Positions 21,765 to 62,867 of a DNA stretch of 64,000 nt are shown here, in pieces (position 1 is the stretch's first letter; the number at the start of each line of letters is the position of its first letter). A program made the translations under genes and the position numbers. Location of the stretch: contig CAVTBU010000006.1 in the NCBI GenBank assembly GCA_963733035.1, forward strand, positions 160,001 to 224,000. The letters are read 5' to 3'. Below the pieces are notes generated by a model that was not told where the DNA came from, did no database searches, and worked only from the letters and a program-made list of their open reading frames with translations. Source of the stretch: Pirellulales bacterium. GTDB lineage: Bacteria; Planctomycetota; Planctomycetia; Pirellulales; PALSA-1355.

Positions 21765-23066
21765 GTGGGCATGCTTCGCGCCACGAATTGGATCACCTCG
21801 TTGACGATCGGCCTTGCGGTGGCTTGTGAAGCATCGTTGCTCTTCGCGGCCGGCCAACCCCAGGAGCACGAGCCGACCCCTGCCGAAGCCAAGGCTTCGC
21901 GCCCGGTCGACTACGTCGCCGACCTGCCGGCGGATGACGAGTCACATACGGATGGTAGCTACAACTCGGACTTGTACGCCGCGCCGCAGCCGCTGGAAAC
22001 CGAGGCCGACGTTGCCCCTGGGGCCGGCGAGGGTGCCGTCGCCGACGACGAAATTGAAACGATCAAGGAACGCTTTCCCAACGGCTCGGTTCGCATCGAG
22101 CGACAGGTTACCCAGGACGCACTGGGCAACTATCTGAACCACGGCACCTGGAAGATGTGGGATGAGCGTGGCAACCTGCTCGCTCAGGGACAATACGAAT
22201 ACGGGAACCGCACCGGCGAGTGGATTCGCTGGTATCGCAGCCCATCGGAAGCCAGCATCCTGACGAAACCACCGTACGCGCAATTTGCCGGCCCGTTTAT
22301 CTCGCAGGCGACGTTCAAAAACGATCAACTCGACGGACACTGGACGATCTACGACGGCAAAACGCACAAGATCAGCCAGTGGACGTTCGAGGACGGCAAA
22401 CGCAACGGACCGTCGGTCTGGTGGTATGCCAACGGCAAGAAGATGCGCAAAGCGCAGTTCGTGAATGGTGACATGGATGGCGCGTACCTGGAATGGGCGC
22501 CGGACGGGTCTCTCAAGGTCAAGGAATCGTACGAATCCGGCCGCCGCTTGGCAATCAAAACCGCTTACCACAAAGGCAACGTGAAAAAGAGCGAAGGCAT
22601 GTACCTGTTTGCCAAGGACGTCGAACACGCTCCGGACGACTGGTGGAATTGCAAGCTCGTGACGACGGTCAAGACCGGCAAGGATGAGAAACACGGCGCC
22701 TGGACCAGTTGGTTTCCCAGCGGTCAGAAGCAACTCGAAGGTGCCTATGAACACGATCTGCAAGTCGGCAAGTTCACCTGGTGGCACTCGAACGGTCAGC
22801 GGGCGCTCGAGGGGAAATTCACTGCCGGCAAACAGGACGGCGAATGGACCTGGTGGCACGCGAACGGCCAGAAATCCATTCAGGGCGAATATGCTCACGG
22901 CAATCCGACCGGACGCTGGACCTGGTGGAAAGAGGACGGGCACGTCGTGCAGTCGGCCGACTTGTCGCAATCCGAGGGCGTCGTGATCGAAACGCCGCGG
23001 CAACTTGAAACGCCGCAAGTTCCTCGCCTCAGCACGCCGACCCGACGACAGCCGGTGAAACGCTAA
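21765..23066 (+). CDS. Secreted MORN-variant (YwqK-like) repeat protein
   Basis: Signal peptide; many repeats of the type GxWxWWHxNGQKxxEGxYxxG. Confidence 0.88.
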   Translation: MGMLRATNWITSLTIGLAVACEASLLFAAGQPQEHEPTPAEAKASRPVDYVADLPADDESHTDGSYNSDLYAAPQPLETEADVAPGAGEGAVADDEIETIKERFPNGSVRIERQVTQDALGNYLNHGTWKMWDERGNLLAQGQYEYGNRTGEWIRWYRSPSEASILTKPPYAQFAGPFISQATFKNDQLDGHWTIYDGKTHKISQWTFEDGKRNGPSVWWYANGKKMRKAQFVNGDMDGAYLEWAPDGSLKVKESYESGRRLAIKTAYHKGNVKKSEGMYLFAKDVEHAPDDWWNCKLVTTVKTGKDEKHGAWTSWFPSGQKQLEGAYEHDLQVGKFTWWHSNGQRALEGKFTAGKQDGEWTWWHANGQKSIQGEYAHGNPTGRWTWWKEDGHVVQSADLSQSEGVVIETPRQLETPQVPRLSTPTRRQPVKR

Positions 23067-23093
23067 CGGGCGCGATCGTCAAATTGACTTCAT

Positions 23094-23127
23094 CAGCAGC
23101 CTGGGAAATTCATTTCCCAGGCTGCTG
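23094..23127. terminator. Perfect 16-bp inverted repeat, likely terminator of the MORN gene
   Basis: CAGCAGCCTGGGAAAT-TC-ATTTCCCAGGCTGCTG followed by TCATTTT. Confidence 0.65.
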
Positions 23128-23192
23128 TCATTTTGGGGAGAAGTGGCGGAAAGCCTCGCAAAACACGGGATAATTGCGATGCGAAACCGCCC

Positions 23193-23221
23193 TTGACCCG
23201 GAAAAACGATTCCCCTATTCT
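23193..23221 (+). promoter_or_regulatory. Putative sigma70 promoter
   Basis: TTGACC-17 nt-TATTCT. Confidence 0.6.
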
Positions 23222-23226
23222 CCCGC

Positions 23227-23543
23227 CTCACGTCGGGGACATGACCGCGAGCCGCCGCAGGCTGAACGCCAAATGTGTCCGTCATGAATCGCGAACCAGA
23301 CAATCCATGTGGATGGGTCCGCACGGGAAACGACGCTCGACGGGGTGGCGTTTCTGCGGGCCGCGAAGCGGATTCCGTTGGCATGGATGCCGGCGGTTCG
23401 CTTCGAATACAGCGCGGCAAATGTCGCAAACCGAGGCCGTCCGCGAAGACCACGCGGTGGGCTGACTGCCGTCCAATCGCTCCCGGAAAAGGTTGCTGTC
23501 CTCTGCCCCCCTGGGACACAGCCTTTCCGGGGGCCTTTTTTTT
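23227..23543 (+). ncRNA. Candidate structured small RNA (~320 nt), family not recognised
   Basis: Own promoter upstream; consecutive long hairpins with G.U pairs on the + strand (about 23318-23360 and 23364-23405); terminal stem plus T8; no convincing ORF. Confidence 0.5.
23481..23543 (+). terminator. Rho-independent terminator with C-rich loop
   Basis: CCCGGAAAAGGTTG.TGTCC-(TCTGCCCCCCTG)-GGACA.CAGCCTTTCCGGG, then GGCC and TTTTTTTT. Confidence 0.75.
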
Positions 23544-23647
23544 GCGCTCAGCTAGCCTGCTGCATGGGGCGCATGCAAATCTCACCTTCGCGCGGAAGGT
23601 TCGGTTTGCACCGCCGCAGCCAACACCGTGGCTCGACCGACCGCAGT

Positions 23648-24904
23648 CTAACGGTGCAGAGCTTCGGGCTCGATGAAATGATCGACGCCGTCGGCCTTGG
23701 CAATGACGACGACTCCGCCGTCGCTGACGGTGAAGCCGCGGGCCCGGTCATGTTCGTGATCGAACCCGATTTCGGTGCCTGGGGGGATATGCACGTGCTT
23801 GTCGATGATGGCCCGCCGCACGCGGGCATGACGTCCGATGTCGACGCCATCGAGCAGAATTGAATCTTGCACGTGGGCAAAGCTGTTGACGCGAGTATTG
23901 GTCCCGAGCAGCGATCGTTCGACGGTGCCGCCGGAGATGATGGAACCCTGGCAGACGATGCTGTCGAGGGCCTGACCCCGGCGCGCGTTGAAGCCCTCCT
24001 CGGCAAACACCGACTTGGGCGGCGGAAAGTTCGGCAGGTAGGTACGGATCGGCCAATGCTCGTCGTACATATTAAGCTGGGGATCGACCGATACGAGGTC
24101 CATGTTGGCTTCGAAATAGGCATCGAGCGTGCCCACGTCGCGCCAATAGGCATCCTGTTTGCGGTTTTCGTCGCGGAACGGAAAGGCAAACACGCGGTGT
24201 GTACCGATGACGGCCGGAATGATGTTGTGGCCGAAATCGTGGCGGCTGCCGGGCCGCGTCGCATCCAGGCAGAGCTGCTCGAACAGGAATCGGGCCGTGA
24301 AAACGTAGATTCCCATCGAGGCGAAGATGTGATCTGGATCGCCTGGAATCGTCGCTGGTTCGGCCGGTTTTTCCTGAAAGCCGTGGATACGCTGATCGCT
24401 GTCGGTTTGAATGACGCCGAAATGGCGGGATTCGCTGGCCGGGGCGCGCAGGGCCCCGACCGTCAGATCGGCTGCGTTTTCTTTGTGGTATTCGACCAGT
24501 CGGCCGTAGTCCATTTTGTAAATGTGATCGCCGGCCAGGATGACGACGTATTCGGGACGCTCTTTCTCGAGCGTGTAGATATTCTGGTAGACGGCGTCAG
24601 CCGTGCCCTGGTACCAGTGCTCGTCGATGCGTTGCTGGGGGGGCACCACGTCGATCCATTCGCCCAGTTCGCGGCAGAGCAGCCTTTGCCAGCCGAGGTT
24701 GATGTGTCGGTCGAGGCTCATCGCCTTGTACTGCGTGAGCACCAACATCTTGCGGAGTCCGCTGTTGAGGCAGTTCGACAGCGTGAAGTCGATAATCCGG
24801 TACGCTCCGCCGAACGGCACGGCCGGCTTGGCCCGATCTCGCGTGAGGGGCTCCAGACGTTCTCCCTTGCCTCCCGCCAAGACCACTGCCAAGACGTTTT
24901 TCAT
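23648..24904 (-). CDS. glgC: Glucose-1-phosphate adenylyltransferase
   Basis: LAGGKGERLEPLTRDRAKPAVPFGG, WYQGTADAV, ASMGIYVF, YWRDVGT. Confidence 0.97.
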   Translation of the reverse strand: MKNVLAVVLAGGKGERLEPLTRDRAKPAVPFGGAYRIIDFTLSNCLNSGLRKMLVLTQYKAMSLDRHINLGWQRLLCRELGEWIDVVPPQQRIDEHWYQGTADAVYQNIYTLEKERPEYVVILAGDHIYKMDYGRLVEYHKENAADLTVGALRAPASESRHFGVIQTDSDQRIHGFQEKPAEPATIPGDPDHIFASMGIYVFTARFLFEQLCLDATRPGSRHDFGHNIIPAVIGTHRVFAFPFRDENRKQDAYWRDVGTLDAYFEANMDLVSVDPQLNMYDEHWPIRTYLPNFPPPKSVFAEEGFNARRGQALDSIVCQGSIISGGTVERSLLGTNTRVNSFAHVQDSILLDGVDIGRHARVRRAIIDKHVHIPPGTEIGFDHEHDRARGFTVSDGGVVVIAKADGVDHFIEPEALHR

Positions 24905-60961: not shown

Positions 60962-60978
60962 TTGGCATGCCGGCTGCA
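60962..60978 (+). promoter_or_regulatory. Putative sigma54 (-24/-12) promoter
   Basis: TTGGCATG-CCGG-CTGCA, with GG and GC separated by exactly 10 nt. Confidence 0.5.
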
Positions 60979-61089
60979 CTAGGGCAGATGCCGCCCATAC
61001 CGGGGCGGGCGAATTCTTTTGTCTGCTAGCAAATCGATTCGCCGCCGCACGCAAGACTTACGCGTGTAGCCGGTGGGCCTGACCGGGGC

Positions 61090-61438
61090 CGCGGCAGGAA
61101 ACTGCGATTGTAAGATTTGGAACCTCGGGACAAGATGTTGCACAGCCTTGGCCATGGAACGGCCGGGCCCTGACGTTGTGTCCCGCCGTCGCGTCGCTTC
61201 TAGCGGCATTGGCAGGAGGCCGAATGCCGATCGCGAACGCGACCCCATCGCCGCGCTGTTCAACACGGAGGTTGCTCAAGCGATCCTTTTTCAGGCGCTC
61301 GTCGATTCTACGCGCCTGTTGCCCGCCATCGCCGGGTTGGACGCTCCGGGCTGCCGCTGCGCTGATCGCATCGGGCGACACAGAGTACGACTCGCCGACA
61401 GGGATGTTGGCACGATTGAATTTTCCATGGAGGGAAAA
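61090..61438 (+). promoter_or_regulatory. Leader or sRNA with six A(N)GGA-loop hairpins (CsrA/RsmA-type binding sites)
   Basis: Loops CAGGAAA, ATGGAAC, AGGAG, ACGGAG, AGGGAT and ATGGAG, each closed by a stem; the last overlaps the RBS. Confidence 0.6.
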
Positions 61439-62867
61439 ATGGTCTCGGTGCAGATAGCGGCCCTGGTCGCGGCTTTATCGGCCTCGGGTGATACCGTACT
61501 CTTGGATTTTCATGCGGCTTGGTGCGGACCCTGCCAGGCGATGAAAGGAACGATCGACGGACTGGAGCGTGCGGGTTACCCGGTGCGCCGCGTGAACGTC
61601 GATCAAGAGCGCCACCTGGCCCAGCAATACAATGTCCACAACATTCCCTGCTTCGTGCTGTTGGTTGACGGCCAAGAAGCCGGGCGCGTGACCGGCGCAG
61701 TCAGCCAGGCGGAACTCGCCTCGATGTTTGCCCGTGCGGGAGTCGGCCGCAGCGCACAAGTCCAGCCGACGGTTCGCGCTCAATCGCCGGACGCACCACT
61801 TGCTAGGTTTTCACTACCAGGACGCCCCGCCCGCGTGGCGGCACGCGATGCGCGGCTAAATCCGAAACCCCAGCCGATCCCGCCGCGAGGCATTGAAACC
61901 AGCGGCCGGGCGGATGCCGTTTCGCCGCAGGATCTGGTTGAGTCGAGCGTCAGGCTCACCATCAGCGATCCGACCGGCGCGTCCTACGGATCCGGGACCT
62001 TGATCGATGCCCGAGCCGGCGAAGCCTTGGTGCTCACGTGTGGCCATATTTTTCGCGACTCACAAGGGAAAGGACAAGTCACCATCGACCTGCTCGGTCC
62101 GGCGCTCCGCAGAAGCTACCGGGTAGAGTAGTCAGCTACGATCTGAAGACCGATGTTGGCCTGGTAAGTTTCAAGCCGGGCGTGCCGGTGCGCGTGGCGC
62201 CGCTTGCGCCCGGGGCTACACGGCCGCCAAGGGAGACCGCGTGGTCACGGTGGGCTGCAACAACGGTGGTCCGGCCACGGCTGAACAAACGACGGTAACG
62301 GCGATTAACAAGTTTCTCGGCCCGCCAAACCTGCAAGTGGCCGGCCTGCCGGTGCAGGGGCGAAGCGGCGGCGGTCTATTTACGTCCGATGGGCGCGTGA
62401 TCGGCGTGTGCAACGCGGCTGATCCGACCGACAACGAAGGGCTCTACGCGGCGTTGGCGGTCATTCAACAGGAGCTCGATGAAGTGGGCCTCACGGCCAT
62501 CTATCAACAGCCCGCGCCTGCGGCACAGCCGGCCGCGAGTCCAGCGGCGATTGCACCCCAGGTTGCCGTGGCCGCGCTAAATCAATTGCCGGGGCCGGTG
62601 CCGCAGCAAGTTGCCGAACAGGCGCTAGAGGGCCTGGAACCGGCGGCTCTGGCCGAACTGCGCAAAGCCGGCTCGGGCGCCGAAGTGATTTGCATCGTTC
62701 GCCCACTTTCCGACCCACGGGCGAAGAGCGAGGTGATCATGCTCGATCGCGCGTCGCCTGCCTTCTTGCAGCAGTTGGCGGTTGATCGGGAAGCACAACA
62801 ATCACGACATCTCACGTCGCTCAACGTGCCCGCCCAGGCTCGCGAGAGCAAGCAAACGCGTCGTTAG
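61439..62867 (+). CDS. Thioredoxin plus trypsin-like peptidase fusion (frameshifts at ~62100 and ~62210)
   Basis: DFHAAWCGPC; protease motifs LTCGH, TDVGL, QGRSGGG over three frames. Confidence 0.85.

Follow-up and report, generated by a model that had tools for sequence, protein, structure and literature searches.

The 64,000-nucleotide (nt) stretch analysed here, henceforth the window, comes from a Pirellulales bacterium (assembly GCA_963733035.1, contig CAVTBU010000006.1, positions 160,001 to 224,000). Coordinates refer to positions in the window unless preceded by the name of another contig of the same assembly (C2, C3 and so on). The element under study is a non-coding RNA (ncRNA) gene on the + strand, situated between a MORN-repeat gene and a convergent gene, glgC, coding for a protein of the ADP-glucose pyrophosphorylase type (Table 1). 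A perfect 16-nt inverted repeat lies shortly after the MORN-repeat stop codon and is therefore taken as the intrinsic terminator of that gene. Downstream from it, a consensus scan identified a -35 box, TTGACC (23193-23198), and a -10 box, TATTCT (23216-23221), separated by a 17-nt spacer; promoter-like sites between 22500 and 24200 number two, as against 0.4 expected from shuffled sequences. Transcription is predicted to start at about 23228-23230, and the RNA is probably strongly expressed. The segment 23193-23543 (+) is a complete unit, with a conserved promoter of the sigma-70 type and an intrinsic terminator, specifying an RNA of about 315 nt (~23230 to ~23543). The locus is almost certainly a real ncRNA gene, and its product is a stand-alone structured RNA, probably regulatory, whose family Rfam 15 does not list.

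Table 1. Features of the ncRNA locus and its surroundings
Feature	Position	Strand	Remarks
MORN-repeat gene	21765-23066	+	Upstream neighbour
Intergenic region	23067-23647		Between the + strand MORN-repeat gene and the convergent GlgC-like gene
Perfect 16-nt inverted repeat, then TCATTTT	23094-23127	+	5′ boundary of the unit, outside the RNA
Promoter block	23184..23221	+	A-rich/CGCCC upstream element, -35, spacer, -10
GC-rich CCCGCC element	23222..23230	+	3′ of the -10 box; conserved in alignments
H0	23228-23287	+	5′ hairpin, variable in sequence and length; many length differences among relatives
74-amino-acid open reading frame	23241-23465	+	Inside the RNA; not conserved, judged non-coding
H1, AUCC-AUGU-GGAU	23303-23314	+	Small hairpin, weakly supported
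H2	23316-23362	+	Conserved outer helix GGUCCGCA / UGCGGGCC around a covarying inner hairpin
H3	23364-23405	+	Long hairpin; loop UGGA 23384-23387; tip CAUGGAUG 23382-23389
H4	23406-23470	+	Variable; two small hairpins in the window RNA; second CA-NGGA-NG hairpin in some relatives
Stretch GUCCAAUCGC	23471-23480	+	Near-invariant, before the terminator hairpin
H5	23479-23534	+	Three-part terminator hairpin; loop 23503-23512; CCCCCC 23506-23511
U8 tract (T8 in DNA)	23536-23543	+	Where the RNA is expected to end
GlgC-like gene, ADP-glucose pyrophosphorylase type	23648-24904	-	Convergent; NTP_transferase 1.4e-60, LbH_GLGC

A first-pass annotation, made from the letters of the stretch, had proposed at this place a stand-alone, structured and uncatalogued ncRNA of about 320 nt, bounded upstream by the 16-bp inverted repeat, driven by a TTGACC-17-TATTCT promoter (23193-23221), composed of back-to-back long hairpins, ended by a terminal stem with a CCCCCC loop and a T8 tract, and convergent with glgC. 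All of these features are found. The long hairpins correspond to H2 and H3, both of which form in the minimum-energy fold. The “CsrA-type” apex that it had singled out is the tip of H3, CAUGGAUG, whose GGA is, together with the run of six C residues in the terminator loop (C6 loop), the part of the RNA under strongest selection. These are the elements addressed by its two tentative ideas on function, CsrA binding and pairing of the C-rich loop with G-rich ribosome-binding sites. The general claim draws support from conservation, promoter and terminator, covariation, and the lack of an Rfam match or a conserved open reading frame (ORF).

The unit is kept in dozens of genomes and is therefore conserved far beyond chance. 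BLAST searches with the segment 23180-23560 returned a single copy in the bacterium's own genome; of 60 relatives from the same order, 55 yielded one good match each (best E 1.4e-5 or lower), the 60 genomes representing 29 families. There were no signs of a dispersed repeat, a known Rfam family or a conserved small reading frame, any of which would have spoken against the initial proposal. One additional locus, on a short contig of genome G049, was recovered by profile search. Conservation is concentrated in three blocks: the promoter plus the following CCCGCCUCAC, a middle domain and the last 78 nt. Identity over these 78 nt is 79-97% in all but two of the 55 relatives with a match; in the remaining two, a shorter stretch is 73% and 80% identical. 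When profile hidden Markov models of the blocks were run with nhmmer, the terminator block was found at 57 loci, the promoter block at 53 and the middle block at 49 of them. In the first set of loci, promoter and terminator are 246 to 540 nt apart, and the regions separating the blocks differ in length by numbers that are not multiples of three.

Folding of the + strand yields a structure of -150.1 kcal/mol (z -2.47), matched by none of 100 shuffled sequences, whereas the fold of the - strand is unremarkable (z -0.39; 34 of 100 shuffles equally good). This agrees with the initial assignment of the + strand as the RNA strand. The minimum-energy fold of the window RNA contains the same helices as the comparative model. 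The middle domain was aligned in 50 of the 53 RNAs with both ends defined, L052, L066 and L073 being dropped because of unalignable middles; RNAalifold predicted H2 and H3 from this alignment. In the model made of H1, H2 and H3 (34 pairs), 91.0% of the alignment cells are paired, as opposed to at most 42% with slid partners. Both sides have changed in 22 of the 34 pairs (12.3 ± 1.6 in shuffled alignments) and 117 cells are doubly changed (40 in shuffles), with none of 500 shuffles reaching either value. H3 shows both-side changes in 12 of its 16 stem pairs, while the GGA at its tip is identical in all 50 aligned RNAs of the order. H2 has such changes in 8 of 14 pairs, with 97% and 86% of its cells paired. 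Support is lowest for H1, in which 84% of cells pair and two of four pairs have changed on both sides.

The 3′ domain behaves likewise. Among 53 RNAs, 10 of its 22 pairs have changed on both sides (4.4 ± 1.1 in shuffles) and 91.2% of cells are paired, versus at most 60% with slid partners. Extending the comparison to 98 RNAs of two orders raises the number of doubly changed pairs to 15 of 22 (8.5 in shuffles) and that of doubly changed cells to 133 (39.3 in shuffles), figures obtained with an alignment fitted to the 3′-domain model (R1, below) and hence biased towards it. H2, H3 and the long terminator hairpin H5 are thus supported by compensatory base changes. The first eight bases of the GUCCAAUCGC stretch are single-stranded in the model and the last two (23479-23480) start the terminator stem. 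Informal inspection of the few variants of this stretch gave no compensating changes indicative of long-range pairing with H1 or with the UGGAU of H3.

An Rfam 15 scan at gathering score produced no match anywhere in the window, and the claim of a new family stands. Lowering the threshold to E ≤ 10 in the interval 22950-23750 returned eight weak, unrelated matches, the best scoring 19.5 bits against a cut-off of 45; these spurious matches came only from the 16-nt inverted repeat upstream from the unit. The initial judgement that the RNA is not tmRNA, RNase P RNA, SRP RNA or 6S RNA also holds. Genes for the first three lie elsewhere in the genome: SRP RNA at C5:806302 (RF00169), tmRNA at C3:1-347 (RF00023; the gene is truncated by the end of contig C3) and RNase P RNA at C5:577748 (RF00010). 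The possibility that the locus encodes a divergent 6S RNA, binding RNA polymerase, draws some support from the fact that the own assembly has no match to the 6S model (RF00013) down to E ≤ 10; blastn searches of this assembly with the 6S sequences of six relatives found none either. However, a full-length 6S match exists in 11 of 41 genomes of the order (3 above cut-off), at a different locus and with an unrelated sequence, and genomes G004 and G019 have both RNAs. Because relatives possess this separate, sequence-unrelated locus, the 6S interpretation is rejected; moreover, the fold supported by covariation is a row of hairpins and not a rod with a central bubble. We give this interpretation virtually no chance of being correct. 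As a side observation, the divergent 6S RNAs of the order measure about 200-220 nt (e.g., L154-L159, from G037, G004, G048, G045, G022 and G019).

A protein-coding function is as improbable. The region does contain two ORFs that might specify a small protein, one of 74 amino acids on the + strand, for which the first-pass annotation had suggested a coding test, and one of 168 amino acids on the - strand. Neither has a Pfam match, and in tblastn searches with either peptide the matching frame shifts along one and the same homologue. In 65 homologous units, the longest complete ORF on the + strand varies from 0 to 120 amino acids (median 45), the variable regions differ in length by numbers that are not multiples of three, and conservation tracks base pairing. 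The 74-amino-acid ORF exists and is not conserved. With its own promoter, an intrinsic terminator, a conserved structure and no conserved ORF, the locus has the attributes of an independent small RNA (sRNA) gene.

The distribution of the RNA across the phylum was surveyed with two covariance models, R1, covering the 3′ domain (80 positions, 22 pairs), and R2, built from the 98-sequence alignment. In 150 phylum-wide genomes, R1 (E ≤ 0.001) gave convincing matches only in f30, a second family of the same class (6 of 6); four further matches comprise the outer stem alone and resemble plain terminators. When R1 was applied at E ≤ 1e-4 to 150 genomes sampled from the class, the RNA was detected in 34 of 35 members of the own order, 28/35 of f30, 1/1 of f108, 1/2 of f113, 1/35 of f109, 1/30 of f110 and in none of f111 (0/5), f112 (0/2) and f114 (0/5). 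R2 (E ≤ 1e-3) left the figures for the own order, f108 and f113 at 34/35, 1/1 and 1/2, and gave 30/35 for f30, 3/5 for f114 (weak matches), 2/35 for f109 and 2/30 for f110. The f109 and f110 matches are mostly short and terminator-like; the match in G333 looks real. The family marks two large lineages of the class, the own order and f30, and is sporadic elsewhere.

Comparison of the two lineages reveals what is common to the family. The f30 RNAs, delimited by a TTGAC-N17-TAnnnT promoter and a U tract, are 76-315 nt long, and members as a whole span 76 to 540 nt. Eight f30 members of about 115 nt consist of a 5′ hairpin and the 3′ domain; the shortest of all, L089 (76 nt), has just a short leader before the 3′ domain. 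Retained in all members are AUCGC, then CCCCGGAA ... GUCCnnnGCCCCCCUGGGAC ... UUCCGGG, and then the U tract. About 45 nt are near-invariant across the two orders, and the stems covary beneath a C6 loop that never changes. The common core is a short single strand, AUCGC, followed by the terminator hairpin that bears this loop. In the eight f30 RNAs of about 115 nt (L085, L086, L131, L132, L136, L137, L139 and L140), the loop of the 5′ hairpin reads GAUGAGC and is complementary to a GCUCAUC sequence located just 5′ of the 3′ domain. Pairing between the two could form a pseudoknot; the changes seen are one-sided (G-U).

How might such an RNA work? Our preferred reading, which we put forward tentatively and from sequence features, is that of a regulatory RNA acting through a CsrA-linked mechanism. 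The RNA would operate post-transcriptionally as part of the expanded set of CsrA circuits in these bacteria; a CsrA dimer would dock on one or two hairpins tipped by CA-NGGA-NG (H3 in the window RNA), and the RNA would either titrate a CsrA paralogue or be loaded by one. AUCGC and the C6-loop terminator hairpin would provide a second contact surface, for G-rich mRNA sites or for another factor. According to the review PMC4347634, CsrA prefers CA-NGGA-NG tips: systematic evolution of ligands by exponential enrichment (SELEX) yielded the consensus RUACARGGAUGU, whose GGA lies in hairpin loops. The same review puts the CsrA sites of CsrB and CsrC at 18 and 9, respectively, and lists McaS among the sRNAs bound by CsrA, with two sites or more. 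H3, the one apical GGA hairpin of the window RNA, is a candidate CsrA docking site.

The motif corresponding to such tips, CANGGANG, occurs 86 times in 65 RNAs of the order, as compared to 7.5 ± 3.0 (maximum 17) in dinucleotide-shuffled sequences, and 16 times versus 1.3 ± 1.0 in 25 RNAs of f30, f108 and f113 (0-2 per RNA), these being counts from related, non-independent sequences. All but one of the 65 RNAs (64/65) have at least one copy. A second is found in 22 of the 65, in H0 or H4 depending on the lineage, and tips a stem of at least three pairs in 13 of the 22 (e.g., GCGUCA-AGGA-UGACGC). The GGA hairpins are modular, and their varying position and number argue for repeated gain, despite the non-independence of the counts. 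The initial remark that GGA density is not obviously above chance is correct for the window RNA (7 in the 326-nt unit, about 6.7 in shuffles) but does not extend to the family, where GGA occurs 568 times in the RNAs of the order (438 ± 18 shuffled) and 112 times in the f30, f108 and f113 units (87 ± 7).

The own genome harbours 14 CsrA matches above the Pfam cut-off (e.g., C8:224484, C5:401551) and one gene for FliW (C5:1429167-1429511), which adjoins a CsrA gene at C5:1429754; most CsrA copies are therefore without a known antagonist. Neither Hfq (PF17209) nor ProQ (PF04352) has a match at E ≤ 0.01 in this assembly, which is 92% complete. Given the single FliW and the undetected Hfq and ProQ, the family is a candidate controller for the other CsrA copies. 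Flagellin_N, sought in the genome with the flagellin leader in mind as a native CsrA site, gave no match. Inspection of a leader at 60962-61441 in the window revealed several hairpins of the H3 type with NGGA tips, such as GGCCAUGGAACGGCC and CCGACAGGGAUGUUGG.

A number of observations, besides the relatedness of the sequences counted, weigh against a role of CsrA. With 0-2 GGA hairpins, members of the family lie far below CsrB and CsrC and outside the range (about 4 to 20) that characterizes CsrA sponges. Exact ACARGGAUGU is present in only 6 of the 65 RNAs, most H3 tips having GCA where the SELEX consensus has ACA. The motif is missing from 13 of the 25 RNAs in the f30 set, and short forms of 76-133 nt do without GGA hairpins, so the core of the family is independent of them. 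A role of CsrA also leaves the most conserved element, the C6 loop, unexplained. CsrA itself is encoded in all 151 genomes of the class sample (2-16 copies each), including families without detected RNA, hence there is no specific co-occurrence of the two; thus, f109 genomes have 6-11 CsrA genes and the RNA in only 1-2 of 35, with matches like plain terminators. Finally, no csrA gene adjoins the RNA in any of the 57 loci examined.

Alternatively, the RNA could be a purely base-pairing sRNA, similar to the C-rich RsaE/RoxS of Firmicutes. Such an RNA would employ the C6 loop and the single strand before the terminator as seeds on G-rich mRNA sites, for instance ribosome-binding sites, with the GGA hairpins as an accessory or a chaperone handle. 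The common core is made of exactly these two elements, kept even in the 76-nt L089, and covariation of the stem contrasts with an unchanging loop. Furthermore, Hfq and ProQ were not detected in the genome, and a review (PMC9029176) notes that in Bacillus subtilis CsrA can help the sRNA SR1 to pair with its target. The target search proposed in the first-pass annotation was unrewarding, however. No convincing site complementary to the C6 loop was found in the own genome. The 10-mer CCAGGGGGGC, used in this search, has 26 exact sites, one of which is the opposite strand of the RNA gene; none of the remainder falls at an obvious gene start and several lie opposite a repeated coding motif. The latter (e.g., C2:59859, C5:333381, C6:85156) are on the opposite strand of a ...MPPW... 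motif in a paralogous gene family; they share the sense of the RNA loop and are therefore not targets. Runs of five G are barely more common than runs of five C ahead of crude ORF starts (125 versus 98 of 13,606), a count made uninformative by the fact that the crude ORF set is mostly spurious. Finally, conservation across two orders is unusual for seed-type sRNAs. On balance, we regard pairing as the sole mode of action as rather unlikely.

Near-invariance over some 45 nt is a trait expected of catalytic RNAs or RNAs that bind proteins rather than of seed-type sRNAs. It could mean that the RNA is part of a ribonucleoprotein or serves a housekeeping function, the 3′ module binding a dedicated protein other than CsrA. 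The strong, conserved promoter with its A-rich upstream element and the single copy per genome would fit such a role. We nevertheless consider it unlikely, somewhat more so than a purely base-pairing action: no protein gene except glgC is a conserved neighbour, the length of the RNA varies from 76 to 540 nt, and the RNA is undetected in most genomes of the sister families f109, f110, f111 and f112, which argues against an essential function.

The glgC gene could itself be the object of regulation if convergent transcription, or antisense pairing with a read-through glgC transcript, tuned glycogen synthesis. A convergent GlgC gene lies directly downstream from the RNA in 16 of 104 loci, as determined by clustering, with four additional partial cases. 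The linked loci belong to own-order families f1, f4, f7, f11, f19 and f28 and to genus g46 of f30, GlgC being the only neighbour that recurs in both orders; six or more own-order families and a single f30 genus thus share the linkage. Consistent with read-through, the - strand has no terminator-like site for glgC between 23548 and 23648. Yet the linkage is missing in more than 80% of the loci, where the RNA is conserved all the same, the RNA's own terminator is strong and one-directional, and the conserved RNA elements have no complement in the glgC leader. Local control of glgC therefore appears very improbable as the function of the RNA. The tail-to-tail arrangement is probably ancestral and was lost in most genomes. 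Other neighbours are confined to single lineages and include, as named by eye from translations, a GGDEF protein, a histidine kinase, a mechanosensitive channel and sulfatases.

The preferred, CsrA-linked reading finds its closest parallels in CsrB and CsrC and in RsmX, RsmY and RsmZ, the RNAs that sequester CsrA or RsmA in Gammaproteobacteria. These are likewise stand-alone ncRNAs with their own promoter and intrinsic terminator, display GGA-tipped hairpins in a CA...UG context and come from genomes that encode CsrA. The planctomycete RNA differs from CsrB and CsrC (9-18 sites) in having 0-2 GGA hairpins, in lacking any sequence or model match to them and in belonging to a different phylum; furthermore its best conserved part, the C-rich terminator hairpin, has no equivalent in CsrB, CsrC or the Rsm RNAs. 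McaS of E. coli, which both pairs with mRNAs and binds CsrA, resembles it in combining about two GGA hairpin sites with other conserved single-stranded or loop elements that could pair with targets. McaS is, however, dependent on Hfq, a protein not detected in the genome studied here, and is about one third as long; there is no sequence similarity between the two. A third comparison is with the C-rich sRNAs RsaE/RoxS of Firmicutes, whose pairing partners are G-rich ribosome-binding sites. Here the likeness consists in an invariant C-run in a hairpin loop and in conservation well past the genus; unlike RsaE/RoxS, the planctomycete RNA has one C6 loop in place of several C-rich motifs, and it shows no Rfam match to their family.

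Almost no regulatory RNAs are known from planctomycetes. In a review (PMC9029176), the number of annotated sRNA families from the entire Planctomycetes-Verrucomicrobia-Chlamydiae group is given as 8. We found no prior description of the present RNA in open-access papers and preprints, and the one earlier-proposed planctomycete RNA motif encountered in the literature searched, Rhodopirellula-1, was considered and rejected since the alignment in the supplement shows unrelated sequences. Weinberg et al. (2010, PMC2864571) list that motif as cis-regulatory, report it from Proteobacteria as well and mark it as overlapping a transposase-related motif. The family described here is a well-supported addition to what RNA catalogues lack. 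A bolder proposal, possible though doubtful, would make it the long-missing RNA partner of the enlarged planctomycete CsrA family and the first CsrA-titrating or CsrA-loaded RNA outside Proteobacteria, ancestrally tail-to-tail with glgC. If so, the RNA would couple carbon storage to CsrA control, using its GGA hairpins for CsrA and the C6-loop module for a second partner.

Expression runs were searched for the window's own sequence without success, the best run containing 5 of 35 sampled words. Contigs from three metatranscriptomes (X4, X6 and X8) and from a run that is probably DNA (X1) contain mainly the conserved 3′ domain of relatives. Word depths over this domain reach 62 in the metatranscriptomes and, as a weak indication of the 3′ end, the contig of one relative ends at the position equivalent to 23545. 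We draw no conclusion on expression from these data, since neither transcript ends nor expression levels can be read from contigs and some of the sequence may stem from DNA carry-over.

The promoter configuration of the RNA gene, TTGAC-N17-TAnnnT followed by CCCGCC, occurs seven times in the genome and is uninformative on regulation; no Rfam RNA is found downstream from these sites. CCCGCC-followed promoter-like sites are present at C5:929565 (-), C6:430689 (-), C7:304815 (-) and four further positions, and the one at C5:929565 (-) has TATTCTCCCGCC in common with the RNA gene.

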